The notes beneath the pieces are model-generated. The model ran no database searches. It saw nothing but the letters and a program-made list of their open reading frames with translations, and was not told the origin of the DNA. From Acidobacteriota bacterium (GTDB lineage Bacteria; Acidobacteriota; UBA890; WLXD01), in contig CBDBHB010000009.1 in assembly GCA_965205505.1 (NCBI GenBank), positions 832,001 through 896,000 on the forward strand: a stretch of DNA of 64,000 nt, read 5' to 3'. This document shows positions 3 to 63,845 of this stretch, in pieces (positions within the stretch are counted from its first letter, which is position 1; every line of letters begins with the position of its first letter). Both the position numbers and the translations under genes were made by a program.

Positions 3-1154
3 ACCTCGCACGCGGCGATCGTGGCGCGCGAGATCGGTGTGCCATGCGTGGTTGGCGCCGCCGATGCCACCACCGTGCTCGCTGAGCACGAAGAGATCAC
101 CGTGAGCTGCATCGAAGAGCAGGGTTTCGTCTATTCGGGGCTGCGGAGCTTCGAGCACGAGGTGATCGATCTCGCCGCGATCCCGCAGACACGCACCGAC
201 GTGATGGTGATTGTTGGCAACCCGTCGCGCGCCATTCAGCAGGCGCGGCTTCCGACTCGAGGCGTGGGCCTGGCGCGACTGGAGTTCATCATCGCCAGCC
301 AGATCGGCATCCATCCACGAGCGCTGCTGGAGCCCGAGCAGCTGAGCGACGAGGAGCGCGTGGCCATCGGCGAGCGCACCAGGGCCTACGAGTCGGGCCG
401 CGAGTACTTTATCGATCGGCTCGCCGACGGTGTGGCGATGATCGGTGCCGCCTTCCACCCTCACGACGTCATCGTGCGGCTGTCGGATTTCAAGTCCAAT
501 GAGTACCGAGGTTTGCTCGGCGGCCGTCACTTCGAGCCGCATGGGGAGAACCCGATGCTCGGATGGCGTGGTGCCTGCCGCTACATCAGCCCCGAGTATC
601 GCGAAGCGTTTCGCCTGGAGTGTGAGGCGCTCAAGCGCGCCCGCGAGCAGATGGGCCTGCCCGACATCAAGGTGATGGTGCCCTTCGCCCGCACCGTGCC
701 CGAACTCGAGGCAACGATCGAGCTGCTGGCCGAATTCGGCCTCCGTCGCGGCGATGCCGGCCTGGAGATCTACATGATGGTCGAGGTGCCCTCCAACGTG
801 ATCCTGTTGCGCGATTTCGCCCAGCACGTCGACGGGCTGAGCATCGGCAGCAACGACCTGACGCAGTTGGCACTCGGGCTGGATCGCGACGCCGGCGGTG
901 CTGTGGCCCAGATCGGCGACGAGCGCGACCCGGCGGTTCAGGCGATGTTGCGCATGGCGCTTCGCACGGTTCGCGAGTTGCGCGAGGAAGGCCAGCAGAT
1001 CCGCATCGGTATCTGCGGGCAGGCACCGTCGGACTTTCCCGAAATCACCCGTCTCTTGGTAGCGGAGGGCATCGACAGCATCTCGGTGACTCCCGATGCG
1101 GTGGTGCAGACGATTCTCACGGTTGCCGAGGTCGAGGACGCGGATTACTCCTAG
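3..1154 (+). CDS. ppsA: Phosphoenolpyruvate synthase, C-terminal part (5' end outside window)
   Basis: Phosphohistidine motif TSHAAIVARE at the window start; GVGLARLEF, RLSDFKSNEY, ENPMLGWRG, SIGSNDLTQL and GICGQAPSD motifs. Confidence 0.95.
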   Translation, partial: TSHAAIVAREIGVPCVVGAADATTVLAEHEEITVSCIEEQGFVYSGLRSFEHEVIDLAAIPQTRTDVMVIVGNPSRAIQQARLPTRGVGLARLEFIIASQIGIHPRALLEPEQLSDEERVAIGERTRAYESGREYFIDRLADGVAMIGAAFHPHDVIVRLSDFKSNEYRGLLGGRHFEPHGENPMLGWRGACRYISPEYREAFRLECEALKRAREQMGLPDIKVMVPFARTVPELEATIELLAEFGLRRGDAGLEIYMMVEVPSNVILLRDFAQHVDGLSIGSNDLTQLALGLDRDAGGAVAQIGDERDPAVQAMLRMALRTVRELREEGQQIRIGICGQAPSDFPEITRLLVAEGIDSISVTPDAVVQTILTVAEVEDADYS

Positions 1155-1429
1155 TGCTCCTGATCATAAGTACGGTGACGTTTGTGGCGCGCGCGAGCGG
1201 GGCGAATTGTAGGAGCGGCGACGAGGGCGATGCTGGGTGTATCGTCGAGGCGCCGCGACGCCCAAGGTGGCCGGTCCCGCGGCCACCCGGAGGGCAGGAG
1301 CGATATGCGGGCGATCTCGGCGTCAGGGCTCGTCGAGGATGGCTAAGGCATCGCCTTCCTCACCCTTCCTTGATCTCGCCCGCATCTCGCTCCTGCAAAC
1401 GTCACCGTACTTATGATCAGGAGCACTAG
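1151..1429. mobile_element. Complete bipartite MITE-like element (279 bp) with perfect 34-bp terminal inverted repeats bounded by CTAG
   Basis: 1151-1184 ctagtgctcctgatcataagtacggtgacgtttg is the exact reverse complement of 1396-1429. Two internal hairpin modules meet at ccggaggg (1287-1294). The left CTAG contains the ppsA stop. No transposase is encoded. Confidence 0.9.
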
Positions 1430-1435
1430 TCCGAG

Positions 1436-1459
1436 CACACTTCCACCACGGCCCGCTAG
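1436..1459 (+). repeat. Solo element end of the CCACACTTCCACCACGGCCTGCTAG family
   Basis: cacacttccaccacggcccgctag, one mismatch to the copy at 20974-20997; lies 6 bp from the MITE right end. Confidence 0.8.
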
Positions 1460-1491
1460 GGGAGGGATGGCCTGGGAGGGCCTGAGTTCAC

Positions 1492-4400
1492 GTGCCGCTG
1501 AAGCTGATTCGCGCCCCCTCCACCCGCACCCTGTGGGATACCTGTGTCGATCGCTTTCTCGACGAGGTGGGGGATAACCCCGGTCCCTCGGGCTTCGCGG
1601 CGCACCTCTGGGTAACGCACCGCAATCAGCGGGACCTGCTGCTGGAGCGCGCCGCGGCACGTGGCGTGAACGGGTGGCTGGGGCCGCCGATCACAGACTT
1701 CCGTGATCTGCATCGGCGCTTCGATATCCGCGGCAAGCCCGTCGGGCTGCTGACGCGCCGGCGATTGATCAGCCGCGTGGCCAGGCGGATCGGTCGGCAG
1801 GTTGGGCTGACCGACCCGAGCCACACCGACGGGGTGGTTCGCGGCCACATGCTCGATGCGCTGTTCGGTGAGTTGTTGCCAGAGGGCGTCGACCCAGTGC
1901 GGTTGGAGGGTGCTTTGGCGAGCGTCGGCGACGACGCCTTCGCGCGTCGGCGCAACGAGTGGATCGTCAGCGCCTACTCCACCTACCTGGCAGAGCTAAG
2001 CGAGCGTGAGTTGTTCGACATGCGCTCCAGCTGGGCGGCGATTGCTGCTCGTGTCGACGAGGGCGCCCTGGTGGAGGCGCTGGGCGGTGCAACACGTCTT
2101 TATCTGTACGGGCTCTACATGACGCGATCGCGTCGGCGCCTTCTAACGTCGCTGGCGGTGCAAGGTGATGTGGATGTTCAGCTCTTCGTGCTCGGGGAGC
2201 CGGAGGCCGAGGAGCTGTGCGAGCTGAGCGACGATCTCGAGGACATCCCCGGCGCCGCGTCACCTCCTGCTTGTGTCCAACCGGCTCCCGACACGCAGCG
2301 CGAGCTCGCCTGGATCGCCCGCGAAGTGAAGAGCTTGCTGGTGCGCGGCGACGTTCGCCCGCACCAGATCGCGGTCGTCGCACGCAGCGGACACGAAGAC
2401 ACCGGTCGAGCCTACAACGCGCTACGAAGCGCCGGTGTTCCGTGTACGGCGGTGATCCGGTCGCGCCTGACGGAGATCGGCGCGCTCAAGGCGCTGCTGT
2501 TGGCGTTCCGGGGCGCCGCCTCGGGATGGAGCTACCGTGCCCTGCGCGCCGTTCTTGACAACGCCTACTACGAGATCGATATCGACCTGCGCCCGATCGA
2601 CCACATCGCCACGCAGCGCCGCGTCGCCGGCCTCGATGCCTGGCAACGGCGGCTCAGCGAGCTCGCCGAGAACGTGCCGCACGCTAAGCGATCCACCTGG
2701 GGTACGGGGTTGGCGCGGCAGCGCTTGCGACAGGACGTGGTGCGGTTCGCGTCGCTGCGTGTCGTGCTCGAGGAGCTCAGCACGCCGCGCAGCGAGGGGG
2801 CATGGATCGAGCTGACGCTGACCTTGTTGCGCCACGGACTGTTCGAGCTGCGTCGCCGCGTATGTGAGCCGGTGGCTGGACGCTGGGACGTGGTTCGCCT
2901 GGACCAGCGGGGCCTGGTGCAGACCGAGAATCTACTGCGCGAATGGGCGACGCTCGATCACCCTGATACTCCGCTCGGCGCCGACGAATGGTACGAGCTA
3001 CTGCAAAGACTGCTAGAGGCGAACGAGCTCAGCATCACCACCCCGATGCACAAGGGCGTGCAGGTGCTCGAGGCGCACGATGCAGCGCTCACGCCGTTCC
3101 GTCAGGTGTTCGTGATGCATGCCAACGACGGCGCCTTCCCACAGCGTGCCTCTGCTGGCGGCGTGCTGTCGAACGAGGAACGCCTGCAGTTGCGCGAGCA
3201 GCAGGGGCTGCCGCTGGCGCATCGCGAGCTTGCGTTGCGGCGCGAGCGGGCGTTATGGCGTGCCGTCACCGGAGCAGGAGACGTGCGGATCACCTATCGA
3301 AGCGCCGACCCGACGGGTACGCCGTTGATGCCGTCGCTGATGGTGCCGCCACACGATCCCGGGTCTGGGCTGCCGCGTACACGCGACCTCTGGGACGACC
3401 CGGCTACCGCGGCGCAAGCGAATCGGCTCGCGGCGCACCGCTTGTTCGATGGTCGCACCGAAGGTTCGATCGCGCCGGCCTCGGAGGAGCTCGTCCGCCA
3501 TGCGGTTCTCGTTGCGGTGGCGGAGTCGCATCGCGACACTGGCCATGAGGCGCTGCATTCAGCGCACCCGGCGTATCGGCCCAACGCGTGGAATGGCGAG
3601 TTGCGCGATCCGCGTGTGCTGGACTGGCTGGCGTCGCGTTTCAACGAGCAGACCATGTGGTCGGCCAGCGCGCTGGAGACCTACGCGAGGAACCCATTCA
3701 TGTTTCTCGTCAAGAGGATCCTTCGTCTCGACGAGGTCGTTGAGGCCGAAGAGGAGACCACGCCGCTGGTGTTCGGCGCCGTGGCGCACGATCTGCTCGA
3801 ACGCTTCTACAGCCTGTTGAAGGACGATGTGCCGCCTAGCTTCGACCGCCGCGCGGAAGCTGCGTTCACCGAGGCGGCTGCCGAAGTCATTGTCGATCGT
3901 GAGATCAGCGATGAATGGACCGGCGCGCCGCTTCTCTGGCGCCAGGAGTGCGAGGCGATCCTTGTTCGCGTTCGCGAGTATCTCGCCTGGGAGCTTGGCC
4001 ACTTGGCAGAGAAAGGCGAGCGGCCGTTCCTCATCGAGTACAACTTCGGTGACGACGGCGGGGTGCTCATAGAAGGTATGGATGTGGAGGACCGGCCGGC
4101 CTGGCTGCGGCTGCGCGGGCGCATCGATCGCGTCGACCTTACCGGGGCCGGTCCGCCGGGTCCGGAGGGCCCCGCCACGTCGAACGTCCTGGACTACAAG
4201 AGCGGCAAGACTCCCAGCGCCAACGACTTCGTCGACGGCACCGCGCTCCAGGCGCCCCTCTACATGCAGGCGCTCGAGAACGCCGGTCATCACGTCGGCA
4301 TCGGATTCTACCGGTCGCTCAAGAAGGGCGGCGGCAAGTACACGCAGTACGCTGGCAAGATCCGCCGCAACGAAGCCAAGTACGACGTGGCGCTGCAGTT

Positions 4401-4548
4401 TGCGCTTAGCATCCCGGGCCGTATCCGCGCCGGAATGTTCGAGCCGGTGCGTTCGCTGCGGGCAGGCCGTTGGCCGGCATACGAGCCCGATCGCGGCATC
4501 GCGCGAAGCGCGGCGCAGCTTCCCGAGGGAAGCCGCTTCGATGCCTGA
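1492..4548 (+). CDS. addB: AddB/RexB-like subunit: inactive helicase-like region plus C-terminal PD-(D/E)xK nuclease
   Basis: IAVVARS, WSASALETY, FGAVAHDLLE, LRGRIDRVD and VLDYKSG motifs; overlaps the downstream UvrD-type helicase by 8 bp. Confidence 0.85.
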   Translation: MPLKLIRAPSTRTLWDTCVDRFLDEVGDNPGPSGFAAHLWVTHRNQRDLLLERAAARGVNGWLGPPITDFRDLHRRFDIRGKPVGLLTRRRLISRVARRIGRQVGLTDPSHTDGVVRGHMLDALFGELLPEGVDPVRLEGALASVGDDAFARRRNEWIVSAYSTYLAELSERELFDMRSSWAAIAARVDEGALVEALGGATRLYLYGLYMTRSRRRLLTSLAVQGDVDVQLFVLGEPEAEELCELSDDLEDIPGAASPPACVQPAPDTQRELAWIAREVKSLLVRGDVRPHQIAVVARSGHEDTGRAYNALRSAGVPCTAVIRSRLTEIGALKALLLAFRGAASGWSYRALRAVLDNAYYEIDIDLRPIDHIATQRRVAGLDAWQRRLSELAENVPHAKRSTWGTGLARQRLRQDVVRFASLRVVLEELSTPRSEGAWIELTLTLLRHGLFELRRRVCEPVAGRWDVVRLDQRGLVQTENLLREWATLDHPDTPLGADEWYELLQRLLEANELSITTPMHKGVQVLEAHDAALTPFRQVFVMHANDGAFPQRASAGGVLSNEERLQLREQQGLPLAHRELALRRERALWRAVTGAGDVRITYRSADPTGTPLMPSLMVPPHDPGSGLPRTRDLWDDPATAAQANRLAAHRLFDGRTEGSIAPASEELVRHAVLVAVAESHRDTGHEALHSAHPAYRPNAWNGELRDPRVLDWLASRFNEQTMWSASALETYARNPFMFLVKRILRLDEVVEAEEETTPLVFGAVAHDLLERFYSLLKDDVPPSFDRRAEAAFTEAAAEVIVDREISDEWTGAPLLWRQECEAILVRVREYLAWELGHLAEKGERPFLIEYNFGDDGGVLIEGMDVEDRPAWLRLRGRIDRVDLTGAGPPGPEGPATSNVLDYKSGKTPSANDFVDGTALQAPLYMQALENAGHHVGIGFYRSLKKGGGKYTQYAGKIRRNEAKYDVALQFALSIPGRIRAGMFEPVRSLRAGRWPAYEPDRGIARSAAQLPEGSRFDA

Positions 4549-7500
4549 GCTGCGCTGGACTCCGCAGCAGGCGCGCGCCATCACCGCCGCCGGAAGCACG
4601 TTGTTGGAAGCCAACGCTGGCACCGGTAAGACCGCCACCGTGATCGGCAAGATCCAGTGGCTGCTGGGACTCGCCCTGCCACCGGATCGGGAGGGCAAGA
4701 TGCTGCCGCCGTGCGCGCAGCCCTGCGACCTACATGAGATTGCCGCCATCACGTTCACCGAGAAAGCAGCCTACGATCTCAAGCGCAAGCTGCGCGAGGT
4801 GATCGAGGAGTCGGAGCGCGCCGACGAGCTACGCTGGCAGATCGACCGCGCCTCCATCGGCACCATTCACTCGTTTTGTGCCGAGCTGTTGCGCGACCAT
4901 GCGCTGCGCCTCGGCATCGATCCGACATTCGGCGTGCTGGATTCGCGCCAGTCATGGGCCGCCCAGGACGACATCATCCGCGGGGTGATCTACGAAGCGT
5001 TAGAGGCCGAGGATCCCGGAACTGGCGATCTGTTGCGCATCCACAAGTTGAGCGGCTGGCAGCACACGAACGGAGCCATCGACCACGTGCGCAAGCTGAT
5101 GAGCGACCTTCGCTGGCATGGCGACCGTTACACGGCGTGGAAAAGTGATGGCCGCCTCGATCGTCAAGCGCTACGCGCCCTCGCAGGCGTCTGGGACGAC
5201 GCCACCGACGAGGCGGTGCTTGCCCACTGCGATTCCCTACTGCGCTTGGCGAGCAGCGCCCTGACACGCTGGGAGGCACACCTGGTAGGCGAGAATGTGC
5301 GCGACTTCGATTCGCTCATTCTCGATGCTCGTACGCTGCTCACCGGCGACGATGGTGGGGCGGCGCTCGAGAGCATCCGGCGTCGATATCGGATCCTTGT
5401 CATCGACGAGCTCCAGGACACCGATTTCGCACAACGCGACATCGCGTTCGCCATTGCCGGGCTGGACCGAGGGCATGCTTTGCCGCGGCCGCAGCTGTTT
5501 CTTGTGGGCGACCCGAAGCAGAGCATTTACCGGTTTCGCGGCGCTGATATCTCGGTGTGGAACGGGGTGCGGGAGGCGATTCGTACCGAGGGAGAGGTGA
5601 TGCAACTGTCGGAGAACTTCCGCTGTGCGCCGCCCATCATCGGCCTGGTGAACGACGTGTCGGCCGCCGCCATGGCCGACGTCGGGCTTGCTCTTCAGGT
5701 CGAGAGTCCGGGGAGCGTGATCGCCTACAGCGAGCTGGTCGCAGCTCGCGCGGAGACGCCCACGGCTCGGCTCGAGTGGTTGGTGGCGGACAAGACCGGT
5801 GGCCGCGGCAAGAACGATCCGCAAGCCGAGGCAGCGCAGGTGGCCGCCCGCATCGAGGAGATGGTTGGGGTCGAGACCGTGTTGGAGGGAGGCTCGGAGG
5901 CGGAGCGCCCCATTGCCTATCGCGACATCGCCGTGCTGTATCGGAGCCGCGCAACGCTGCGTTACTTCGAGGCGGCGCTGGGACGCCGGCGGATTCCCTA
6001 CACCATTGCCGGGGCGCCGCACCTCGGCGACCGGCAAGAGATTCTCGACCTCCTGAACGCTCTGCGCTTGATCCGCAACCCGCACGACGATCTGCGGGCA
6101 TTCGGGTTCCTGCGCTCGCCGTTCGTATGCCTGCGCGATGAGGTTGTAGCTCACATTCGGCTCGAGGCGCGCGGGCCCGATTTGCTCCGCCAGTGTGAGC
6201 AATACCTGCGCCAAGGGGAGTGGTACGAGGCCCCTGAGCACGACCAGATCAGCAGCCTCGAGCGCCGAGCGCTGGAGCGTGGTCTCCAGGCGTTGCGCCA
6301 GGCCCGCGCGCTGGTGCATCGCGCGCCGCTGGACGAGGTGCTGTCGCGCTTGCTCGACGACACTGGCTACCGTCTGCACCTGCACATGCGTCGGCGTCGC
6401 GAAGAGCAGCTGGCCAACATCCAGAGCTTTATCCAGTTCACCGAGGCGTACCGAGATCTCGACATCGGGACGTTCCTCGAGGTCTGGGACCGCTGGGACG
6501 AGCAGGACAATGGCCTGCCGCAGGCGCCGCTCTACAGCAACGAGGATGACGTCGTGACGCTGACGACCATCCACCGCGCCAAGGGGCTGGAATGGCCGGT
6601 GGTCTTCCTGGTGGGCATCGGCCGGAAGCTGGGCCACGATCCTTGGGGAAGGTTCTGGAGCGACCGCGAGCTCGGCCCGCTGCTCAACCCTCCCAGGTCC
6701 GATCGCGGCGCGCGCGCGCAGCGAATACACGATCGCGAGCGACTCGAGGATCGGGCCGAGGAGGCGCGACTGCTCTACGTGGCCATCACCCGCGCGCGCG
6801 ATCGACTGTTGGTGGTTGGGGCACACGAGGACAACAGCTATGCCGCCTGGCTGCGGCACGGTATTGACCGCAATCCGGTGTTCGTCCGCGAGGAGCCTGC
6901 CTCCGAGCCGCCGCTCGACCCAGCTTCGTTGGTCAGCCTCGGTTGGCTCGACGGCATGCGCGTTGAAGAGCCCGATCACCTGGTAGCGCCGATCGCCGAG
7001 CCTCCGCCTCGCTTCGTGCAGTCGGCCACTGAGCTCATGATGCGCGAACGGGACGAAGACGAGTGGGAGCGCCGCTATCGACATGGTGTACAGGCGTCGA
7101 GCGAGTTCGTGATGCAGCCGGCCGACGGAGAGCCGGCGCTAAAGCCAACTGTGCGCGGCACTTTGATCCACGGGGTGCTCGAGCGCATCCAGCAGGAAGA
7201 CGAGCTGGCCGCCATTCTCGAAGAAACCATCGGCGGGCTCGACGATCCCGAGCTCGAACGGTTCATGAGCTCCCACTCGCGCTACCGGGCGGCGCTCGAA
7301 GACGAGATCCGCAGAATCGTACGTTCCGACGCCTGGAAGTGGTACGTCGAGGGCGAGAACTACCGGGAGCTGAGCTTCTTGCACCTACGCGCGGCACGCG
7401 ACTGGCGAGTCGGGGCCTTCGATCTGTATCGCCCCGGCGACCCCGACACCTGGGTGGTCGACTTCAAGACCCACGAGATCGGTGCCGACGAGGTGGCCGC

Positions 7501-7663
7501 GGTCGCTGCGGGTTATCGGATTCAGGCGCAGGTCTATCGACAGGCGGCGCAGGTTGCCGGGCCGGCGCGGGTCCGGTTGCACTTCACCGAGCCCGGCAAG
7601 CTCATCGACGATCTCGGCGTCGAGTCGTCCCGCGACGGGAAGGAGCAGGGAACGCTCTTCTAA
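4541..7663 (+). CDS. addA: AddA/RexA-like UvrD helicase-nuclease (start reassigned to ATG 4541, MPELRW)
   Basis: Walker A ANAGTGKT, AITFTEKAA, IDELQD, GDPKQSIYRFRGA, TIHRAKGLEW, LLYVAITRAR; C-terminal nuclease GAFDL...VVDFKT. Confidence 0.9.
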   Translation: MPELRWTPQQARAITAAGSTLLEANAGTGKTATVIGKIQWLLGLALPPDREGKMLPPCAQPCDLHEIAAITFTEKAAYDLKRKLREVIEESERADELRWQIDRASIGTIHSFCAELLRDHALRLGIDPTFGVLDSRQSWAAQDDIIRGVIYEALEAEDPGTGDLLRIHKLSGWQHTNGAIDHVRKLMSDLRWHGDRYTAWKSDGRLDRQALRALAGVWDDATDEAVLAHCDSLLRLASSALTRWEAHLVGENVRDFDSLILDARTLLTGDDGGAALESIRRRYRILVIDELQDTDFAQRDIAFAIAGLDRGHALPRPQLFLVGDPKQSIYRFRGADISVWNGVREAIRTEGEVMQLSENFRCAPPIIGLVNDVSAAAMADVGLALQVESPGSVIAYSELVAARAETPTARLEWLVADKTGGRGKNDPQAEAAQVAARIEEMVGVETVLEGGSEAERPIAYRDIAVLYRSRATLRYFEAALGRRRIPYTIAGAPHLGDRQEILDLLNALRLIRNPHDDLRAFGFLRSPFVCLRDEVVAHIRLEARGPDLLRQCEQYLRQGEWYEAPEHDQISSLERRALERGLQALRQARALVHRAPLDEVLSRLLDDTGYRLHLHMRRRREEQLANIQSFIQFTEAYRDLDIGTFLEVWDRWDEQDNGLPQAPLYSNEDDVVTLTTIHRAKGLEWPVVFLVGIGRKLGHDPWGRFWSDRELGPLLNPPRSDRGARAQRIHDRERLEDRAEEARLLYVAITRARDRLLVVGAHEDNSYAAWLRHGIDRNPVFVREEPASEPPLDPASLVSLGWLDGMRVEEPDHLVAPIAEPPPRFVQSATELMMRERDEDEWERRYRHGVQASSEFVMQPADGEPALKPTVRGTLIHGVLERIQQEDELAAILEETIGGLDDPELERFMSSHSRYRAALEDEIRRIVRSDAWKWYVEGENYRELSFLHLRAARDWRVGAFDLYRPGDPDTWVVDFKTHEIGADEVAAVAAGYRIQAQVYRQAAQVAGPARVRLHFTEPGKLIDDLGVESSRDGKEQGTLF

Positions 7664-7665
7664 CT

Positions 7666-7694
7666 CCCGCCACGGTTCCACCACGGCCTGCTAG
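7666..7694 (+). repeat. Solo element end (…TTCCACCACGGCCTGCTAG)
   Basis: cccgccacggttccaccacggcctgctag between the convergent addA and vapC 3' ends, followed by a second CTAG. Confidence 0.8.
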
Positions 7695-7704
7695 CTAGCG
7701 GCGC

Positions 7705-8082
7705 CTACCAGAGTGTGGTGACGCGGTACTCGCCAAACTCCGCGTCGCCGGTGATGCAAACGAGCCCCTCGGTCTGCGACTGCGCGATCAGCATCCGATC
7801 GAACGGGTCGGGGTGATGCGGTGGCAGGTCGGCGGCGCGCTGCGCGTGTCGCGCTTCCATCGGCAGCTCCAGGAAGTCATTCTCGGCGATCTCCGCCTCC
7901 AGGTCGGCGTCGTCGACCCTGAGTCGTCCGAGTCGTCGTTTGATCGCCAGCTCCCAGATGGTGGCGGCGCTGACAAACACCACCGAGTGGGGCTCGGCGA
8001 TCGCTTGGCGTGCCGCGGGCGGCAGCGAGCGATGGTCCATCAACCACCACAGGTAGGCACGACTGTCGAGCAACAACCTCAA
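7705..8082 (-). CDS. vapC: VapC/PIN-domain toxin
   Basis: LLLDS, FVSAATIWELAIK, HHPDPFDRMLIAQ and ITGD PIN motifs; directly downstream of a Phd-type antitoxin. Confidence 0.93.
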   Translation of the reverse strand: MRLLLDSRAYLWWLMDHRSLPPAARQAIAEPHSVVFVSAATIWELAIKRRLGRLRVDDADLEAEIAENDFLELPMEARHAQRAADLPPHHPDPFDRMLIAQSQTEGLVCITGDAEFGEYRVTTLW

Positions 8083-8085
8083 GGA

Positions 8086-14995: not shown

Positions 14996-15592
14996 TCAGG
15001 AAAGCGGACGGAGGAGGAACTGCTCCATGACGAAGCTCTCCAGCGGCGTGCCGGAAGGAGCGTAGCGCGCCACGTTTCGGAACTTCGGCCGGCCACCGCG
15101 CAACACTTGCGCTAACCAGCTGGGGCGTATTGCGGCGCGGTGTACCAGGTCGCCCGCCACATCCGCGTCCTTGGTGGCGTAGAGCTGGAACCAGGCCCGC
15201 GGGCCTGGCAGCTCGCCGATCTCTTCCATCTCCACAGTCGAAAGTGTGCTCAGGCAATACGGAATGCCGGCCCGCGCCGCTGCCGCCGCCAGAATCAGCT
15301 CGGCGCCGGGCCACATGAGCCCGCTGAGCCCGACCGGCGCGATACGGAATGGCAGCTCGTAGCGCTGTCCGAACAACTCCGTAGACAGCTCCAACGAGGT
15401 CACGTCGACCATGAACCGCGGTGTCAAGGTCACGGCGTCCAAGCGAGCGCGGTTGCGCGCGAGACACACCTCGCGCCCGGTGGCCCCCTGTAAGTAATCG
15501 AACGCGAAGCGCGGAATTCGCCGTTCGGCCGTGCGCGCCAGGTCCTCGATCGAGGGGTGACGCCGCATCAGGGGGCTGGGCGAGTAGTCCAT
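14996..15592 (-). pseudogene. Truncated, internally deleted FMN-dependent alpha-hydroxy-acid dehydrogenase (LldD-like)
   Basis: N-terminal motifs present (FAFDYLQGA, PFRIAPVG, WFQLY). The TVD segment and the C-terminal catalytic region (VSNHGGRQ, DSG) are missing. Confidence 0.8.
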
Positions 15593-15602
15593 CAGGCCAC
15601 CG

Positions 15603-16871
15603 CTACTCACCCCGCTTGACGACCGTACCGGCGAGCATGACGAACGAGACGTGTTCCGTCGCGCGAATGTCCTCCAGGGGGTTCCCCGGTACCGCGATCA
15701 GGTCGGCCAGTCGCCCGACTTGGATTGCACCGCGGTCGCTCACCCCGAGCACCGCGGCTGCTTCGATGGTGGCCGACTGTAACGCTGCCATCGGCTCCAT
15801 GCCACGCTCCACCAACACCGCGAACTCGCCGGCGTTGTCGCCGTGCGGGTATACGCCAGCATCGGTTCCGAAGCCGATCTTCACTCCGGCGGCGATCGCC
15901 TGGGCGAGGCTCTCGCGTGCCAGCGGCAAGATGCGCTCGGCCTTGGAGCGCAGCAGTGGTGGCAACGCGTCTAGATCGATGGCATCGATGAGGTAGGTGG
16001 TCGGTACGAGGTACGTACCCCGCGCCTTCATCAGCTCGATGGTCTCCGTATCGAGGATCGAGCCGTGCTCGATCGACGCCACGCCGGCCTGCACTGCGGC
16101 GCGGATTCCCTCGGTGCCGTGGGCGTGAGCTGCCACCTTGATATCGTGCCGCGCCGCCTCCTGCACCATCGCCTGCAGCTCTGCCAGGCTGTACTGCTGC
16201 GCGCCGACCGATTCCTCGAACGACAGTACGCCGGCGGTGGCGCACGTCTTGATGACCTTGGCGCCATGCTTGATCTGGTAGCGGACCGCCTTGACGACCT
16301 CGTCGGGACCATCGGCGATACCGTCCTTCCATGTGGTCTCGAGCACTCCCGGGGCGAAGCCGGTGACGTCGCAATGCCCGCCGGTGATGCCGATGGGATT
16401 ACGCGACGGAAACACGTGCGGTCCCGTCACCATGCCGGTCTCGACGGCGCGGGCGAGCGCCACGGTCACTTCGCCGCCGAAGTCGCGCACGGTGGTGAAG
16501 CCGGCGAGAACCGTCTTGCGTGCATTGGACGTGGCGCGGAAGGCCGCATCGACATCGGTTTCTCTTACCGCACGATTGAACGAGTCCGCGTCGATGTCGC
16601 CGCCTAGATGGGTGTGTAAGTCGATGAAGCCTGGCAGGAGCGTGACATCGCCGAGATCGATCACCTGCGCATCGGGAGGCAGCTGGCCGACCGCACTGAT
16701 GCGGCCGTTGACGATGGCGACAATGCCCGGTTCCACCATGCGTCCCTGTACGACGTCGAGCATGCGGGCGGCGCGCAGCACGACGGTTGTGTTGTCCTGT
16801 GCCAGGCCGACGCTGGGATGGACCAGCAGCGGCAATGTGATCAGCAGTACGAGGCGGCTCAAGAAACGCAT
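15603..16871 (-). CDS. Secreted amidohydrolase (Xaa-Pro dipeptidase-like)
   Basis: LPGFIDLHTH, AGFTTVRD, VAAHAHG, SIEHG and FGTDAG motifs; AGGAG RBS before ATG 16871; signal peptide. Confidence 0.92.
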   Translation of the reverse strand: MRFLSRLVLLITLPLLVHPSVGLAQDNTTVVLRAARMLDVVQGRMVEPGIVAIVNGRISAVGQLPPDAQVIDLGDVTLLPGFIDLHTHLGGDIDADSFNRAVRETDVDAAFRATSNARKTVLAGFTTVRDFGGEVTVALARAVETGMVTGPHVFPSRNPIGITGGHCDVTGFAPGVLETTWKDGIADGPDEVVKAVRYQIKHGAKVIKTCATAGVLSFEESVGAQQYSLAELQAMVQEAARHDIKVAAHAHGTEGIRAAVQAGVASIEHGSILDTETIELMKARGTYLVPTTYLIDAIDLDALPPLLRSKAERILPLARESLAQAIAAGVKIGFGTDAGVYPHGDNAGEFAVLVERGMEPMAALQSATIEAAAVLGVSDRGAIQVGRLADLIAVPGNPLEDIRATEHVSFVMLAGTVVKRGE

Positions 16872-20854: not shown

Positions 20855-20997
20855 CCGGAGGGTTACGACGATTCGGGGCCATCTGCTGCGTTGGCCTTCC
20901 TCGACGATGGCTAGAGCATCGCCAGCGTCAGGCCGCCTTCCAACTGGCCCCAACTCGCCGTAACCAGGCCCGCCACACTTCCACCACGGCCTGCTAG
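20855..20997 (+). mobile_element. Half element (143 bp) homologous to the right half of the 1151-1429 MITE
   Basis: Aligns without gaps to 1287-1429 (~78/143 identical by hand). Shares the ccggaggg start, GCGTY and CCTT loop motifs, gatggct…gcatcgc core and CTAG end; stems are compensatorily different. Confidence 0.8.
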
Positions 20998-22807: not shown

Positions 22808-22830
22808 GCCTCCACAACCCTGTCGGCCGC

Positions 22831-22859
22831 CCCGCTACACTCCCACCACGGCCTGCTAG
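22831..22859 (+). repeat. Solo element end overlapping the stop of the 22856 gene
   Basis: cccgctacactcccaccacggcctgctag; CTA at 22856-22858 is the minus-strand stop. Confidence 0.8.
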
Positions 22860-28879: not shown

Positions 28880-29024
28880 GCCCTCCGGGTGGCCGCGGGG
28901 CTGGCCGCCTCCGGCGTCGGCTCTCCTCTGCGATACGCTCAGCATCGCTGTCGTCGAGCCTCCTTGGACGCGACTCAATCGCGCGCGCCACAATATGCAA
29001 CGAACCTCTGTTACAGGACACTAG
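28880..29024 (+). mobile_element. Half element (145 bp) homologous to the left half of the 1151-1429 MITE, in reverse orientation
   Basis: Aligns without gaps to the reverse complement of 1151-1295 (~104/145 identical by hand); compensatory stem changes; ends tgttacaggacactag. Confidence 0.85.
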
Positions 29025-31602: not shown

Positions 31603-31635
31603 CAGGCCCACCACACTTTCACCACGGCCTGCTAG
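31599..31635. repeat. 37-bp mini-element with 10-bp inverted ends that carries the stop codons of both flanking genes
   Basis: ctagcaggcc-caccacactttcaccac-ggcctgctag; TAG 31600-31602 ends fadE and CTA 31632-31634 ends the convergent hydrolase. Confidence 0.85.
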
Positions 31636-53884: not shown

Positions 53885-53896
53885 CGACGAATGACA

Positions 53897-53942: not shown

Positions 53943-53968
53943 TCGAACCTGTCGCTGCTGGCGTGAGC

Positions 53969-55909: not shown

Positions 55910-55940
55910 CGATTCAGTCCTCCGCCTTCGGTTTTCGTTA

Positions 55941-57332
55941 TCAGACCGGGTACGCGAATTCCCCGGTGCTGTCGCCGAAGCTCTGTAGGTCGTCGTGACC
56001 CAGCTGGTGCAGCATGCTCAACATCACGTTTGCCATGGGGGTACCGGGCTCGGCTCGTACGTGGAGGTTGCCGTGCGGTTGGGTATTAGCGCCGCCGAGC
56101 ACGATCAGCGGGCAGCGTCTGTGGTTGTGTAGGTTCGGGTCACCCATGGGCGAGCCGTAGACGACCATGGTGCTGTCGAGTAGCGGGCTGTCGCCATCGA
56201 GGGTGTTGCTCAGCCTATCGAGAAGGTAAGGGAGCATACCGACGTGGTAACGGTTGATCTTGGCGAACTTCTCGACGTTCGCTGCGACATCGCCGTGGTG
56301 CGAGGTCCGGTGGAACGGTTCGTGGACGCCACTCTCCGGGAACACCCTGGCCGAAGCGTCGCGACCCAGCTTGAGCGAGAAGACACGCGTCAGGTCGGCG
56401 GCGAAGGCCATCGCCTGAAGATCGAACATGAGCTCGACGTGCTCGGTGAACGAATCCGGTACGCCCGCAGGGGCGGCCGGTAGCTCACGCAGCTCGCCGC
56501 TGCTGTTGCGTTCTTCCGTGATCTGGATGCGCCGCTCGATCTCACGGATGTTGGTTAGGTAACGGTCCAGACGCCGCCGGTCGCCGGCGCCGAACGCCTG
56601 CTGGATGTGCGACACTTCTTCAGCGATCCAGTCGAGGATGCTGCGTTTGCTGGCGCGGCGCGCGGCACGCTGCTCGGGAGTTCCACCGGCACCGAAGAGC
56701 CGGTCGAAGATGGCCCGTGGATCGCGGATCATCGGCAGCGGCTCCGTCGGCGAGCCCCAGCTGATCGTGTCGGAGTAGATGCAGGCGTACCCATAGTCGC
56801 AACCGCCGGCCTGATCGACGTTCTCGATGCACAGCTGCATCGACGGGATCGGGTTGTCCTGCCCAAATCGCTGCGCGTGGACCTGATCCATCGAAACGCC
56901 GGCCATGACGTCCGATCCTTCGGTCTGCTTCGGATGCGCCTGGGTCAGGAAGACCGCGCTCGAGCGGTAGTGGTCGCCGCCGATCTCTTTGGTCTCGTAG
57001 GCCTCGGCCTGCTGGCAGTCGGTGTCGCTGACGATCGTCAGATACTTGCGCCAAGGCTCGAGCGGGGTCAACGACGTCGGGGTCAGATCGAAGTCGTGTC
57101 CGATCGCCGCCGGCGCCCACAGGTTCTTGGTGGCGCCGAAGGCATTGCTTCCGGCGGCGCCGTGTACGATCTCGATGCAAACCAGGCGCTTCGGACCGTC
57201 TACGGTGTTTACGGCGGCCTTCGCGAATGCCGTTCCCGCCGGCACCATCGCGTCCATCAGTGGGAGCGCTACCGTGGCTCCCAGGCCGCGCAAGACAGTC
57301 CGGCGATGCATGGCTTTTTGCGTTATGTACAT
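55941..57332 (-). CDS. DUF1552 (HXXSHH) family Tat-exported protein
   Basis: HRRTVLRG Tat motif, ALPLMDAM, GGCDYGYAC, IREIERRI, FHRTSHH and GDPNLHNH. Confidence 0.9.
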   Translation of the reverse strand: MYITQKAMHRRTVLRGLGATVALPLMDAMVPAGTAFAKAAVNTVDGPKRLVCIEIVHGAAGSNAFGATKNLWAPAAIGHDFDLTPTSLTPLEPWRKYLTIVSDTDCQQAEAYETKEIGGDHYRSSAVFLTQAHPKQTEGSDVMAGVSMDQVHAQRFGQDNPIPSMQLCIENVDQAGGCDYGYACIYSDTISWGSPTEPLPMIRDPRAIFDRLFGAGGTPEQRAARRASKRSILDWIAEEVSHIQQAFGAGDRRRLDRYLTNIREIERRIQITEERNSSGELRELPAAPAGVPDSFTEHVELMFDLQAMAFAADLTRVFSLKLGRDASARVFPESGVHEPFHRTSHHGDVAANVEKFAKINRYHVGMLPYLLDRLSNTLDGDSPLLDSTMVVYGSPMGDPNLHNHRRCPLIVLGGANTQPHGNLHVRAEPGTPMANVMLSMLHQLGHDDLQSFGDSTGEFAYPV

Positions 57333-57379
57333 GGGCTGTTTCCTCGCCCGGATGGCCGGAGTCGCGCCGAGCCGAAGGC

Positions 57380-59851
57380 TCAGCGGTTTTCGTCGCGTTC
57401 CGCGGCTACTTCGGGTAGTTGAATCTCGTTGTTGGTGCGAAAGGCTTGGCTCGTCGCCACTCCAACGATGAAGGACGACATTTTGTAGTCGTTGCTTGAT
57501 GCCGCGCGAACGATTGCGCGGATCTCTGGCATATCAGGGTACTCGACCCGGCGGCCAATCCCATACGCCATAAGGTTCTCGGTGAAGGTCGTGATGAGCG
57601 CTGGCGAGTATTTCAGCAGCGCGTCGCGCAGATCCGCCGGGCTCGTGAGGGCGGTGCCGTCGTACAAGCTGCCCGACGTGTCGACGGGGTTACCGGCGTC
57701 CTTGGTGCGCCAGGCGCCGGTCACGTCGAAGTTCTCCAATGCCAGGCCGATCGGGTCGATTGCTCGATGACAGCTGGCACACGCCGGGTTGGCCCGATGC
57801 CGCTCCAAACGCTCACGGACCGTCAGCTCGCGGCCGTCGGCGATTGCCTCTGTGGCATCCAGCTCAGGCACGTCGGGCGGCGGCGGTGGCGGCGGGCTGC
57901 CGAGCAGCACGGACATCACCCACTTGCCACGCAGCACCGGCGATGTGCGCTCGGCATGCGATGTGAGCGTCAAGATGCTGCTATGTCCCAGCAGGCCGCG
58001 GCGCTCCGGATTCGCCACGGCGACGCGGCGGAAGTGTTCTCCGCTCACGTCGGGAATCCCGTAGTGGCGGGCCAGGCGGTCGTTGACGAAGGTGTAGTCG
58101 GCGCGCAGCAAATCGAGCACGCTGCGGTCGTCCTCGACCAAGCTGTTGAAGAACAGCTCTGTCTCGCGACGCATGGCCGCCGCCAGCTCCTCGTGGAAGT
58201 CGGGGAACATCAGAGCATCCGGGTGTACTTTGTCGAGGTCCTGGAGCCGCAGCCACTGGGCTGCGAACCGCGTTCCCAGCGCCGCCGCTCGCGGATCTGA
58301 CAGCATCCTACGAACCTGCTCTTCCAGCACCGCGTCATCGGAGAGCCGGTGCTCTCGCGCCAGCGTCATTAGCTCCCCGTCCGGCGCCGCGCCCCACAGG
58401 AAGAACGACAGACGCGAGGCCAGAGCCACATCGCCGATACTGGTGAGCTGGCTGCTCGCCTGGCCAGTGGCCGGTGCTTCAAAGCGCAGCACGAAGTGGG
58501 GGCTCGACAGCAGTGCCTCGAGCGCCGAACGGATGCCGGCCTCGAATCCACCGTTGTCGGCTCCCTTGCGGAAGAACGACATCAACCCGACGAGGTCGCG
58601 CTCGGTGGTGGGACGCCGGTAGGCCTGCGTCGCCAGCCGCGTGATGATCGCCTCGGCACACGGGACTTCCTCGTCAGACGAGATCGGGCGGCAGCTGAAG
58701 ATCCGTTGACGGCTCGGCGTTGCCGAGACTCCGGTGGCATTGTAAGGGCCGATGATCGCGGCGCCCTGGAGGTGGACGAGGCTCGTGATGCCGTGAACCG
58801 AGCCGATCGAGCGATCCGACAAGCTCCACTCGTGTGGCGACAGCAAATCGACCGCGGGCCCTTCTGACCGCTGGATGAACACTATCGAGATTCGTTGCGC
58901 TCCGGCACGGATGAATATCCGCGGGGTGGAAATGCTCTGGTTGTCGGGGTCCATGAATCGGTCGACATCGAGCAGCGCGGCGCGCTCCCCGTTGACCGAT
59001 ACCTCGATCTGCTCCTGGTGGAGGAGAGCCTTGCCGAACAGCAGCCCCTCGGGTGAGTCGAAGAGCGTCAGGGTGACCTGGTATTCGCCGTCGGCAGGGA
59101 AGTTGTGAATCACCGACAGCCCGCCGCGCGTGCCGTACGGGGCACCCTCGACCCGCTCGCGCTGTGACGTGTAGCGCGACATCGTGTACTTGGTCTCGGC
59201 CACGGAAGCGTTCGGGTCGCCCACCGCCAGACGGCTGATCTCGGCAGCCGCTGCCAGATAGCCTTCCATCACCGTCGCCGAGAGGCCTTGAACGTCGGCG
59301 ATGTTGTCGAAGCCGGCGCTCAGCGGATCGGGTGGCAAGTAGGCGCTGGCGTCGATATCGAGCTCGAGCAGATCGCGCACGGAACGCTCGTACTCGACGT
59401 GGTTGAGTCTCTGGAACGTGCGCCCGCCGGGGTTCGGGTTGGCCGCGGCGGCTGCGTCGACGCGAGAGGCGAGGGCCGCAACCAGCGCGGTGAGCGTTCC
59501 TTCGTCGGGACGCCTCGCCGGAAGCGCGGGCATCATCCCCGCTTCCAGCTTGCGGATCATCTTCTCGGCGACCTCGGCGTTCTCGTGAGCCGTGGCGACG
59601 TCGAAGCTCTCGAGGCTCAGCCCGCCGCGCGACATGCTGTCGTTGTGGCAGCGTAGGCAGTAGCGGCCGATGACCTCGTTCTGCTCCTGGTACGGCGAGG
59701 CGACGGTCGCTGCGTCGCCGGGCATCGAGAGGCTGTCATGCGTCGAGTCGTGCTGCGCCAGACCGGTCCTAGCCGTCACGCCGAGGCCGAGCATGCCGAT
59801 GGCGGCGAGAGAGAGCATGGACCGCTTCATTCGACTATCTCCATTGCGCAT
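57380..59851 (-). CDS. DUF1587/1592/1588/1585/1595 c-type cytochrome-like protein
   Basis: CLRCH and CASCH heme motifs, RLN..EY, GFDN, ALASRLSFFLW, TSPVLRGKW and GLALENFD. Confidence 0.92.
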   Translation of the reverse strand: MRNGDSRMKRSMLSLAAIGMLGLGVTARTGLAQHDSTHDSLSMPGDAATVASPYQEQNEVIGRYCLRCHNDSMSRGGLSLESFDVATAHENAEVAEKMIRKLEAGMMPALPARRPDEGTLTALVAALASRVDAAAAANPNPGGRTFQRLNHVEYERSVRDLLELDIDASAYLPPDPLSAGFDNIADVQGLSATVMEGYLAAAAEISRLAVGDPNASVAETKYTMSRYTSQRERVEGAPYGTRGGLSVIHNFPADGEYQVTLTLFDSPEGLLFGKALLHQEQIEVSVNGERAALLDVDRFMDPDNQSISTPRIFIRAGAQRISIVFIQRSEGPAVDLLSPHEWSLSDRSIGSVHGITSLVHLQGAAIIGPYNATGVSATPSRQRIFSCRPISSDEEVPCAEAIITRLATQAYRRPTTERDLVGLMSFFRKGADNGGFEAGIRSALEALLSSPHFVLRFEAPATGQASSQLTSIGDVALASRLSFFLWGAAPDGELMTLAREHRLSDDAVLEEQVRRMLSDPRAAALGTRFAAQWLRLQDLDKVHPDALMFPDFHEELAAAMRRETELFFNSLVEDDRSVLDLLRADYTFVNDRLARHYGIPDVSGEHFRRVAVANPERRGLLGHSSILTLTSHAERTSPVLRGKWVMSVLLGSPPPPPPPDVPELDATEAIADGRELTVRERLERHRANPACASCHRAIDPIGLALENFDVTGAWRTKDAGNPVDTSGSLYDGTALTSPADLRDALLKYSPALITTFTENLMAYGIGRRVEYPDMPEIRAIVRAASSNDYKMSSFIVGVATSQAFRTNNEIQLPEVAAERDENR

Positions 59852-59992
59852 CAGGGCTCGTGCACACCAGTGTCGGCGCGGAGTTCGCCAGCCCCCGCGG
59901 AGCCCTACGCGTGCAGTATATGGCTGCCGTCGACGGCTTGCCCAGGCTCCACGAGTGGATTCCTTCGATCGCGTATATCGACCGTCCAGGGC

Positions 59993-60002
59993 GGCCTGCT
60001 AG
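59993..60002 (+). repeat. Possible minimal element end ggcctgctag on a stop codon
   Basis: 10-bp match only; its CTA is the creatininase stop. Confidence 0.35.
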
Positions 60003-60877: not shown

Positions 60878-60950
60878 CGATAAACCTCCTTGTTGAGCCG
60901 CTCTCTCTGCGCGTTTGCACGCGGTGACCTGTGCACTGCGTTGGGGACGG

Positions 60951-62672: not shown

Positions 62673-62796
62673 GGGCGGGCAGGGATCACAGTGCAGGATT
62701 ATAGGTCCGCGGCCGGTTGTGCCGGCCTTGCCGGTGGACGAACACGCCGCTAAGGTTCGCTACGCCATGTCCCACAGATGCACAGGAGCCCGATCG

Positions 62797-63711
62797 ATGA
62801 AACTCCGTCACGCTGCTCTCACCGTCGCGACTACCTTTGTCCTCGCCGTCGGCCCGGTCATACCGGACCTGTTTGCCCAGCAGGATTTCGACGCTGTGGA
62901 GATCGACACCATCGAGGTAGTCGACGGCGTCTACATGCTGATGGGCGCTGGAGGCAACATCGGCCTGAGCGTCGGGGACGACGGCGCGTTCGTCGTCGAC
63001 GACCAGTTCGCGCCGCTTACCGACAAGATCCGCGCGGCCATTGCGGCGGTGACCGACGCGGAGGTCAAGTTTGTCGTCAACACCCACTGGCACGGTGACC
63101 ATACCGGCGGCAACGAGGCCTTCGGATCCGCCGGCGCCGTGATCGTAGCGCACGACAACGTCCGCAAGCGGATGAATCCGGAGCAGTTCGGGGAGGTCAT
63201 GGGAAGCACCGAGCAGGCCCCGCCGGCGGCCTTGCCGGTAGTGACTTTCAGCGACGAGGTTACGTTCTACTGGAACGACGAAAAGATCCAGGTCGAGCAC
63301 GTCAGGCACGCGCATACTGACGGCGATGCCCTGATCTGGTTTACCGGCGCCAACGTAGTGCACATGGGCGACAACTTCTTCAACGGCGTCTACCCGTACA
63401 TCGACGTCGACTCGGGCGGCAACGTCGACGGGATGCTCGCCAGCGCCCGGCACGTCTTGGCGCGAATCGACTCCGACACCAAGATCATCCCCGGCCATGG
63501 GGCGCTCGCCGGCCCCGAGGACCTACGCCGGTTTCGCGACGTGCTGACCTTGGCGCGTGATCGCGTCGGCGCGATGATCAACGACGGGATGAGCCTCGAG
63601 GAGGTCATCGCGGCGCTGCCGATGTCCGACCACGACGAGACATGGGGCGGGGGTTTCATGTCGGCGGATCGCTTCCTGACCGTCGTATACCGCAGCATCG
63701 CCGGCGAGTAG
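62797..63711 (+). CDS. Secreted MBL-fold hydrolase (cyclase-like)
   Basis: GAGGNI, NTHWHGDHTGGN, AHTDGD, HMGD and IPGHG motifs. Confidence 0.92.
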   Translation: MKLRHAALTVATTFVLAVGPVIPDLFAQQDFDAVEIDTIEVVDGVYMLMGAGGNIGLSVGDDGAFVVDDQFAPLTDKIRAAIAAVTDAEVKFVVNTHWHGDHTGGNEAFGSAGAVIVAHDNVRKRMNPEQFGEVMGSTEQAPPAALPVVTFSDEVTFYWNDEKIQVEHVRHAHTDGDALIWFTGANVVHMGDNFFNGVYPYIDVDSGGNVDGMLASARHVLARIDSDTKIIPGHGALAGPEDLRRFRDVLTLARDRVGAMINDGMSLEEVIAALPMSDHDETWGGGFMSADRFLTVVYRSIAGE

Positions 63712-63845
63712 GCGCAGCAGCGGTCCGCGGCGCGATGGCCGGCGTTGCGCCTCCTTGAAGTAGGCAGATCTACGCCCGCGTCGTCGCGCCTTGGCCCCCG
63801 CGCCGCGTCCTCGCTGTTGCGCCCGCTCGCGGTCGGCGACACTAG
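63712..63845 (+). mobile_element. Diverged hairpin module of the same element family, ending on the ggt stop
   Basis: Outer stem gcgcagcagcg/cgctgttgcgc; GCGTT…CCTT loops span 51 nt (52 in the other copies); ends gacactag. Confidence 0.6.

Follow-up and report, generated by a model that had tools for sequence, protein, structure and literature searches.

Probable IS5-type miniature elements carrying a covarying, strand-asymmetric hairpin in an Acidobacteriota genome and in distant bacterial groups

A family of hairpin-forming repeats was analysed in a stretch of 64,000 nucleotides from an Acidobacteriota bacterium (assembly GCA_965205505.1, contig CBDBHB010000009.1, positions 832,001 to 896,000 of the forward strand), which is called the window throughout. 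A preliminary description of this DNA had reported five modules of about 140 bp, named L, A, B, C and D, and had proposed an unannotated family of structured RNA or single-stranded DNA (ssDNA). The structure and the missing Rfam match of that proposal were confirmed, but the elements are no free-standing RNA genes, and the true unit is the whole element of 160-280 bp and not the module. The elements are bona fide transposable elements of the miniature inverted-repeat kind (MITEs); they show terminal inverted repeats, CTAG/YTAR or TTA flanks, presence/absence polymorphism and, in one subfamily, a repeat shared with an element of the insertion sequence (IS) family IS5. The explanation favoured here, with a probability of roughly 0.6, is a superfamily of IS5-type MITEs that have no gene of their own and carry a hairpin of constrained structure as cargo. 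Dependence on IS5-family transposases is most likely. Relatives occur in many distant bacterial groups and, as far as found, are apparently undescribed so far. MITE families are usually young, restricted to one lineage and defined by their ends. A structure-constrained interior core that is conserved across phyla, with ends that differ between subfamilies, is unusual for a MITE.

The whole window was scanned on both strands, unfiltered, with a covariance model (R1) built from 43 relatives. Exactly five matches were obtained, all strand-specific and scoring 52.7-95.9 bits, and they bore out the five modules at the places where the preliminary description had put them. Next came A and B read in antisense, each with 17 bits, and all others had E>0.3. 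Modules L and A, formerly counted as separate, together make up a single complete composite element 279 bp long (1151-1429, assigned to neither strand), each being one half of it, in which CTAG, a terminal inverted repeat, L, the centre CCCGGAGGG (1286-1294), A, a terminal inverted repeat and CTAG follow one another. The terminal repeats form a perfect 34-nt inverted repeat (1151-1184 and 1396-1429; 34/34 nt complementary). Module L (1183-1287; 62.8 bits, E 2.9e-13) has its GCGTY...CCTT reading on the minus strand and its purine-loop strand, the complement of that reading, on the plus strand. Module A (1293-1398; 92.7 bits, RNA fold z-score -3.45) has its GCGTY reading on the plus strand. As a single strand the composite gives a multibranch fold closed by the paired terminal repeats, with z = -11.0 for the plus and -11.7 for the minus strand against 200 shuffles.

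The elements B, C and D, all on the plus strand, are half or decayed. The half element B (20855-20997) consists of the centre CCGGAGGG, a module at 20861-20966 with the highest R1 score (95.9 bits), a type-1 terminal repeat at 20965-20993 and CTAG at 20994-20997. The half element C (28880-29024) contains a module at 28888-28992 (64.3 bits) and a type-2 terminal repeat ending in CACTAG; a local hairpin stands in place of its 5' arm, as it also does in L. The decayed copy D (63712-63845) lies between convergent genes and contains a module at 63716-63819 (52.7 bits; RNA fold z = -2.31) with a core of 51 nt, without the centre motif and with a CACTAG end. Element lengths in the window are 134-279 bp. 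The measurements are in accordance with the earlier alignments made by hand, since the reverse complement of L aligns with C without gaps over 145 nt at 71.7% identity (about 72% had been given) and A aligns with B without gaps over 143 nt at 54.5% (about 55%). The span from GCGTY to CCTT is, as reported, 52 nt in every module but D, where it is 51 nt, and the inner stems quoted at that time (GCGGC/GCCGC, GGCTC/GAGCC, AGGG/CCCT, GGCCT/AGGCC and GCGC/GCGC) as well as the quoted outer stems were all seen in the alignment. In a repeat search the inverted pair L/C extends to 155 nt at 71% identity. The pattern GCGTY-N8-TC-NN-S-GAT-N7-GCATCGC occurs four times in the window and in 0/100 dinucleotide-preserving shuffles.

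The core is common to the family and reads GCGTY-5bp-...CGATGC-N5-GCATCGCC...-5bp-NCCTT, in which GCGTY and NCCTT stand at the two ends, the strands of a 5-bp stem of variable sequence follow inwards, and the apical stem CGATGC-N5-GCATCG, which is invariant, lies in the inner part; its consensus is GCGTtgnnnctccTCgaCGATgnnnnnnGCATCGCCtncgTCnnnncgCCTT. It measures 52 nt in 29/44 units and 51 nt in the other 15/44. The arms around it pair gaplessly in one register (71%, against 36-43% in five others), and a TC/TC 2x2 loop lies four pairs below the core in 13/43 units. The last base of GCGTY and the first of NCCTT were also compared: T stands opposite G in 27/44 and C opposite T in 15/44, never a Watson-Crick pair, which on the purine-loop strand becomes C.A or A.G. 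Among the 43 units with enough flank, CTAG was found 53-55 nt after the core in 23, CTAA or TTAA replaces it in 4, and nothing recognisable stands at the expected position in 13; variants of one base are common at the same place. The end bases adjoining CTAG vary between subfamilies, while CTAG and the core are kept.

Two forms of the element were distinguished. In single-hairpin elements a CTAG also precedes the core by 53-54 nt, for a total length of about 162 bp, and the outer arms of such relatives are 67-96% complementary; the copy of Aureimonas has arms of 55 + 55 nt and TTA flanks. In composites the core-to-CTAG distance is the same and is made up of 25 nt of arm and 30 nt of terminal repeat. 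All 12 composites (L+A and 11 in other genomes) show the same (-)(+) head-to-head order with 5-7 nt between the modules, and each DNA strand reads 5'-CTAG, terminal repeat, purine-loop module, CCC-NNN-GGG, pyrimidine-loop module, terminal repeat, CTAG-3'. Owing to this order each DNA strand carries one purine-loop copy. The centre CCC-NNN-GGG (1286-1294 in the window; loci L001, L014, L083, L091 and others) can, through its variable middle, be read as a tetraloop of TTCG, TACG, TCCG, TGCG or CTTG type, depending on the subfamily. One Streptomyces copy breaks the geometry, having a core of 48 nt and one arm that is 15 nt longer; the geometry of the family is conserved, not absolute.

The motif TATCCTGC, which some Clostridia copies carry in their 3' arm, was set aside; it belongs to a single clade of Clostridia (L011, L024, L027, L041, L061 and L067), where TTATCCTGCG stands in an internal loop of the 3' arm, and the other subfamilies lack it. 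This arm motif resembles the nick-site core of MOB-P relaxases. In one of these loci, from Lachnospiraceae bacterium M18-1, an A+T-rich hairpin (L067, 668-833) lies beside two elements and was matched by the plant microRNA precursor model MIR6140 with 56 bits and E 1e-8, far below the gathering score; it is probably another hairpin-forming repeat and no real MIR6140 match.

Covariation was measured with shuffle and slide controls rather than R-scape, on sequences that are related to one another. An alignment of full 170-nt units by MAFFT (A2) had its 5' arms misaligned and was replaced by A3, a MAFFT alignment of 43 modules with 106 columns that is essentially gapless and was not fitted to the structure. 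In A3 77.3% of the cells of the proposed pairs are paired, against 58.4% in shuffled alignments (0/500 as high) and 31-45% in slid registers; the covariation score is 0.463 against 0.174 shuffled, and all 29/29 pairs of the arm and 5-bp helices change on both sides. In A4, in which 69 hits were aligned to the model and which leans towards the structure, 79.7% of cells are paired against 56.1% shuffled and 28-46% in slid registers, with a covariation score of 0.516 against 0.155 shuffled. Even so, grouping at 80% identity leaves 27 to 42 clusters whose stems differ widely. These larger alignments uphold the reported covariation of the stems under constant length and loop motifs, with pairing above both kinds of control. 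The apical stem shows no covariation and is conserved in sequence (G-C 68/68, A-U 66/68 and U-A 65/68 in A4), and CGAT.../...ATCG and the loop motifs hardly vary. The phrase that structure and spacing, not sequence, are under constraint holds for the structure, but its second half goes too far, as the core of 52 nt with its invariant apical stem is kept across phyla. As part of the favoured explanation, the pairing and the hairpin geometry are probably kept by selection while the sequences of the stems turn over.

The two strands of the hairpin are not equivalent. A first wobble count on the GCGTY strand of 27 representatives gave 33 G.T against 48 A.C, which is not significant. On the purine-loop strand of 42 cluster representatives 88 G.T stand against 44 A.C (p=1.6e-4; 44 against 88 on the GCGTY strand) and 142 purine-purine mismatches against 64 pyrimidine-pyrimidine ones (p=6e-8), both p-values being optimistic as the clusters are related to each other. 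The purine-loop strand also has the lower folding energy in 37/41 representatives with RNA parameters and in 32/41 with DNA parameters, an asymmetry that comes partly from nearest-neighbour bonuses for purine mismatches. Under R1 the GCGTY reading reaches 53-96 bits, its complement 17 bits. The earlier suggestion that wobbles on the purine-loop strand mark a functional strand was thereby supported by the counts and by the energies. Such an asymmetry is predicted by a single-stranded form, RNA or ssDNA, and would not be predicted by a cruciform or by mere conversion of the arms; it points to the single-stranded purine-loop strand as the form that matters.

The link to IS5 was provided by the Aureimonas copy, which reads TTA-GAGCCTGTTTGGAAA...TTTCCAAACAGCCTC-TTA. 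A plasmid of Gluconobacter oxydans H24 contains an element of about 880 bp that is bounded by the Aureimonas-type repeat (23/24 nt) with the same TTA flanks, and whose protein matches DDE_Tnp_1, DUF4096 and NF033580 'IS5 family transposase'. This element has no core, and the gene annotated as its transposase begins about 8 nt in from the left end; the missing core indicates a hairpin that is carried as cargo and is no IS remnant. Only for this branch was a terminal repeat found to agree with that of an IS5-family element. CTAG is given as the IS5 target duplication in a passage of PMC10379815, and 2-bp repeats are given for IS427-group elements in a passage of PMC3281130. The target flanks here are CTAG...CTAG or TTA...TTA, in which a duplicated unit of TA cannot be distinguished from one of CTAG. 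The repeats of other subfamilies (CAGGCCGTGGTGAAAG..., CAGCCTGTTGAAGAA..., GGCTCTGTCTGAAGA...) presumably follow the IS5-family repeat pattern of ISfinder entries.

Presence/absence polymorphism was seen in Streptomyces. In one plasmid it is inserted precisely where a GNAT and an AraC gene converge and their stop codons overlap, and at the orthologous site about 166-176 bp are missing in 16 related plasmids, CTAA being present there in the two that were read. Streptomyces atratus has 8-9 matching places per plasmid, and one of its sites is filled in two plasmids and not in a third with 100% identical flanks. The terminal repeat of the Streptomyces copy, searched by BLAST against plasmids for its IS, returned only the copy itself and chance matches.

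The relatives were gathered by a genome scan for the loop motif with the stem positions left free, which gave at least 105 loci among the matches listed; as the fetch pattern demands the loop and apical motifs, their conservation is partly there by construction. R1 found a module at E<=1e-6 in 48/105 of these loci. The record titles name Acidobacteriota (several metagenome-assembled genomes, MAGs, including Thermoanaerobaculia), Phycisphaerae, 'Brocadiaceae' bins, Gemmatimonadota, Myxococcota, an 'Akkermansiaceae' bin, Kiloniellales, the isolate Sphingomonas pokkalii and many Clostridia, among them the isolate Lachnospiraceae bacterium M18-1 and mouse-gut isolates. By larger group the titles cover Acidobacteriota, Planctomycetota, Gemmatimonadota, Myxococcota, Alphaproteobacteria and Clostridia. 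BLAST of two relatives against plasmids added the plasmids of Aureimonas sp. AU20 and 14 Streptomyces plasmid records, and R1 confirmed the Aureimonas and Streptomyces copies with 40.8 and 49.4 bits, respectively. By record titles at least six phyla are represented, though the near-identical L014 and L044 stand in an 'Akkermansiaceae' and a 'Gemmatimonadota' bin and many records are MAGs, so that some phylum labels may be binning errors; isolates or complete plasmids represent Pseudomonadota, Bacillota and Actinomycetota. Two Acidobacteriota MAGs hold at least 5-6 loci each among the matches listed. Element B is at least 80% identical to the modules L006, L031, L070 and L091 of an Acidobacteriota MAG, which stand inside full composite elements made up of CTAG, a 30-nt terminal repeat, the reverse hairpin, CCCTTCGGG, the hairpin, the terminal repeat and CTAG; this terminal repeat is the 33-nt repeat of the window. 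Taken with a gene pair of Planctomycete-type domains described below, this identity of B suggests an Acidobacteriota-like source for the window. BLAST of B and of a Clostridia copy against the plasmid collection gave no match.

According to the favoured explanation the elements would be moved by DDE transposases of the IS5 family supplied in trans, which is also presumed for the window's own subfamilies. Insertion would take place at CTAG/YTAR sites, or at TNA in one branch, and such sites often overlap stop codons. Between the terminal repeats the element carries as cargo a hairpin of about 100 nt, not derived from an IS, with the core of 51-52 nt placed 53-55 nt from the element end; the element comes as a simple form of about 162 bp with one hairpin or as a composite of about 280 bp with two hairpins head to head around CCC-NNN-GGG. 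Readthrough from flanking genes may then let the hairpin act on RNA, a version that holds somewhat less than half of the belief placed in this explanation. The RNA hairpin would be a 3'-end stem-loop close to the stop codon or an intergenic stem-loop, and a conserved factor might read its invariant apical stem and purine loops. It would make insertions tolerable or useful, and copies would persist; composites would offer a purine-loop module first to a transcript coming from either side. This RNA stem-loop reading is placed slightly ahead of a device acting at the level of DNA. Covarying stems, fixed geometry and a favoured strand in a selfish element would imply a new function, which might be a structural need for mobilisation or a ready-made RNA module acquired at gene ends. 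Pairing of the Shine-Dalgarno-like (GAGGA) or anti-Shine-Dalgarno-like (CTCCTC, CCTT) loops with the ribosome or mRNAs was considered and rejected as a general account, as TCCTC is not general: the stretch reads CAATC, CAGTC, GCATC or AACTC in Clostridia, Phycisphaerae and other subfamilies, and only TC is kept.

Several observations weigh against this explanation, in addition to the relatedness of the clusters, the energy bonuses, the motif-dependent fetching and the doubtful bins mentioned above. Gene orientation was first taken from the longest open reading frames (ORFs) in 400-nt flanks, which proved too noisy, and a narrower count of ORF ends was used, which is still biased. In this count ORFs of at least 70 codons end just before the module on the purine-loop strand in 19/37, on the other strand in 7/37 and on both in 4; the bias is that half elements have a built-in TAG on one side and that short G+C-rich flanks give spurious ORFs. 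Among true single hairpins the same orientation was 7 against 2, with 3 on both, which is not significant, and for each of the three single modules of the window, whichever strand is taken, a neighbouring gene can be found to which it is sense. A passive 3'-end hairpin leaves the retention of the core across phyla by a selfish element unexplained. The filled and empty sites of Streptomyces do not form a clean duplication, as the host flank resembles the terminal repeat over 13 nt, and the 'empty' allele of S. atratus holds 12 unrelated bases. No IS with ends matching the two terminal-repeat types of the window was found in the search made, that of plasmids with B, which was empty. The Streptomyces flank was also compared in L107 (2945-3140) with L109 and L110: right of the insertion, 13 nt of the host flank equal the start of the left terminal repeat, and 3/9 positions differ from the orthologous empty sites. 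This flank may be what remains of a second copy, a tract left by conversion or a duplication of greater length.

Among the alternatives, a hairpin serving the element's own transposition at the DNA level is rather unlikely, and it is also the best account of the ruler-like geometry and of the retention across phyla. Here a fold-back of ssDNA at a replication fork, or a cruciform, would join the CTAG ends at the foot of a helix some 54 bp long, the core would nucleate folding or bind the transposase or a host factor, and the arm would be a ruler from the core to the cleavage site. The constant core-to-CTAG distance of 53-55 nt in singles and composites, and of 55 nt in the TTA-type Aureimonas copy, argues for it, as does the constancy of CTAG and core beside variable end bases; a selfish function accounts more easily than one for the host for retention of the core across phyla, DNA parameters too make the purine-loop strand the more stable one (32/41), and composites place one purine-loop hairpin on each strand. 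However, IS5-family enzymes are DDE transposases acting on double-stranded ends and are not known to use an ssDNA or hairpin-guided route; a cruciform folds both strands and predicts no asymmetry, which was seen. Solo terminal repeats of 33 nt recur without a core, having either moved without it or been left by deletion, and the window contains no candidate enzyme. A more far-reaching reading, less likely than not, is that the core with its ruler arms of about 54 nt forms a strand-specific cis device, either an ssDNA fold cut at CTAG or a new and very widespread class of structured RNA that travels in MITEs from phylum to phylum and would act on the transcripts into which it inserts. In the ssDNA version the fold would be recognised by IS5-type transposases that the element hijacks or by some enzyme still to be linked to it, and in both versions the cargo and not the terminal repeats might be the evolutionary unit, swapping terminal repeats between hosts. 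No described transposon is known to have such a strand-specific device of core and ruler.

It is improbable that folding is under no selection at all, with the arms kept alike by template switching or gene conversion and the core being a double-stranded binding site. Such a core would be a palindromic operator with GCATCG half-sites 11 bp apart, fitting a dimeric protein, for instance a domain of a transposase or a bending protein of the host. MITEs are commonly palindromic over their whole length, recent conversion would be compatible with the perfect 34-bp terminal repeat of L+A, and the apical stem that never covaries (68/68, 66/68, 65/68) fits recognition of sequence. Conversion would nevertheless erase asymmetric features, yet an internal loop of 6 nt against 5 nt persists across phyla, as do the T/G or C/T mismatch next to the loop (42/44) and the TC/TC 2x2 loop (13/43); nor does it predict the excess of G.T over A.C on one strand, which is 2:1. 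That the elements are copies of a described family (ERIC, RUP, RPE, Correia, REP/BIME, an IS200/IS605-type palindromic element or an Rfam motif) is very improbable, although the style, small, intergenic, hairpin-forming and multi-copy, would fit and the start of the core, (G)CGTC, recalls the CGTC-tagged REPs described in a passage of PMC3733652. No Rfam family matched the window or 25 related loci, as the preliminary description had expected: Rfam 15 gave no match in the window at the gathering score, and in the module regions at E<=10 or in the 25 loci at E<=1 only chance-level microRNA, snoRNA and sRNA matches appeared, with no family match at E<=1 in the window modules or in the loci of Acidobacteriota, Clostridia, Alphaproteobacteria and Streptomyces. 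E. coli genomes carry ERIC and REP, and BLAST of a Clostridia copy gave no match in 5,426 of them. In the open full-text literature, searched also with literal motif strings, no description of the element was found; ISfinder, Dfam and subscription journals lie outside this coverage.

The likeness to structured MITEs drawn in the preliminary description points in the right direction. IS5-family MITEs of the IS1031, IS427 and IS5 groups, of which Chunjie of Geobacter is an IS5-family-derived example, are likewise small, non-coding and multi-copy, share GAGCCTGTTTGGAAA-type terminal repeats with an IS5-family element, have TTA or CTAG/YTAR flanks and show presence/absence polymorphism. The elements analysed here differ from them in that the interior is not an IS remnant, the most conserved part is the interior core and the length is held at about 162 bp. 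Correia elements of Neisseria (NEMIS/CREE) are MITEs about 100-155 bp long whose terminal inverted repeats lie at TA targets; they are often co-transcribed, their RNA hairpin is processed by RNase III and affects mRNA stability, they have a central IHF site, and they are restricted to one genus. They are set apart here by their description: no sequence relation is known, and Correia elements are not known to have a covarying long stem around a conserved asymmetric core. ERIC/IRU, RUP and the Rickettsia RPE are also imperfect palindromes of 100-170 bp, intergenic or transcribed and thought to fold in RNA, but each belongs to one lineage with conservation over its full length, whereas here the stems turn over; for RUP and RPE this difference is drawn from their description.

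REP/REPIN/BIME elements with RAYT are structure-constrained palindromes with a short unpaired tag (here (G)CGTY), form head-to-head dimers and follow genes, and their single-stranded form is thought to matter, as in the present elements. REPs, however, have 20-40 bp and lack terminal inverted repeats and target duplication, while here a 52-nt core stands in an element of 160-280 bp with IS5-type ends. For CGTC-tagged REPs a passage of PMC3733652 gives 8-9 bp for the stem, with A-T pairs at its start, and 4-5 nt for the loop, which disagrees with the 52-nt core and its 5-bp stem; the identity of the core with such a REP was rejected on these stem and loop sizes. Integron attC sites and IS200/IS605 ends resemble the present hairpin in being recognised by their fold, with one active strand and unpaired bases at fixed places. 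Both are structure-recognised ssDNA substrates. The elements here have no R''/R' core sites at their ends, in contrast to attC, and do not stand in cassette arrays. IS200/IS605-type elements lack both terminal inverted repeats and a target duplication, and the subterminal hairpins of their two ends differ; an IS200/IS605-type identity was rejected, as the present elements have long terminal inverted repeats and identical flanking tetranucleotides and IS200/IS605 has neither.

The window contains, besides the five modules, four solo terminal-repeat units within its 64 kb. A direct repeat of 33 nt (D1) was found in five copies, of which one is the 3' end of B, and it is the terminal repeat of the sister (type-1) subfamily. 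The solo copies all lie on the plus strand. The first (1427-1459) is degenerate, with 82% identity to the reference copy, and abuts L+A, with which it has CTAG 1426-1429 in common. The second (7662-7694; 85%) ends in CTAG and lies between the AddA-like and PIN-domain genes, and the third (22827-22859; 88%) has a CTAG at 22856-22859 that holds the stop of the minus-strand gene 22856-23977. The fourth (31599-31635, the 33-nt unit starting at 31603; 94%) has CTAG on both sides, and these two CTAGs provide the stops of the convergent genes 29125-31602 (plus) and 31632-32921 (minus). Likewise, the left CTAG of L+A holds the TAG stop (1152-1154) of the upstream gene for a PEP-utilising enzyme. Border CTAGs that double as stops of flanking genes were thus noted at 31599-31635, 22856-22859, 1151-1154 and 63842-63845. 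The tetranucleotide is under-represented in the window (61 found, 111 expected), and 11/61 are at borders of elements or solo repeats. R1 would let annotators mask or label an unannotated repeat that gives stop codons and 3' ends to flanking genes.

A Pfam scan of 42 ORFs of the window gave no transposase-family match. Directly downstream of L+A lies an AddB/AddA-like helicase-nuclease pair (1492-7663; PD-(D/E)XK, then UvrD helicase with PD-(D/E)XK), whose two long ORFs overlap in the crude calls and have uncertain starts; it is followed by a PIN-domain gene (7705-8082). An ORF of 204 aa on the minus strand (14999-15610) matches only positions 1-133 of the 350-position profile of FMN-dependent dehydrogenase and may be a truncated or frameshifted gene. 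A gene pair at 55944-59851 carries the Planctomycete-type domains DUF1552 and DUF1585/1587/1588/1592/1595.

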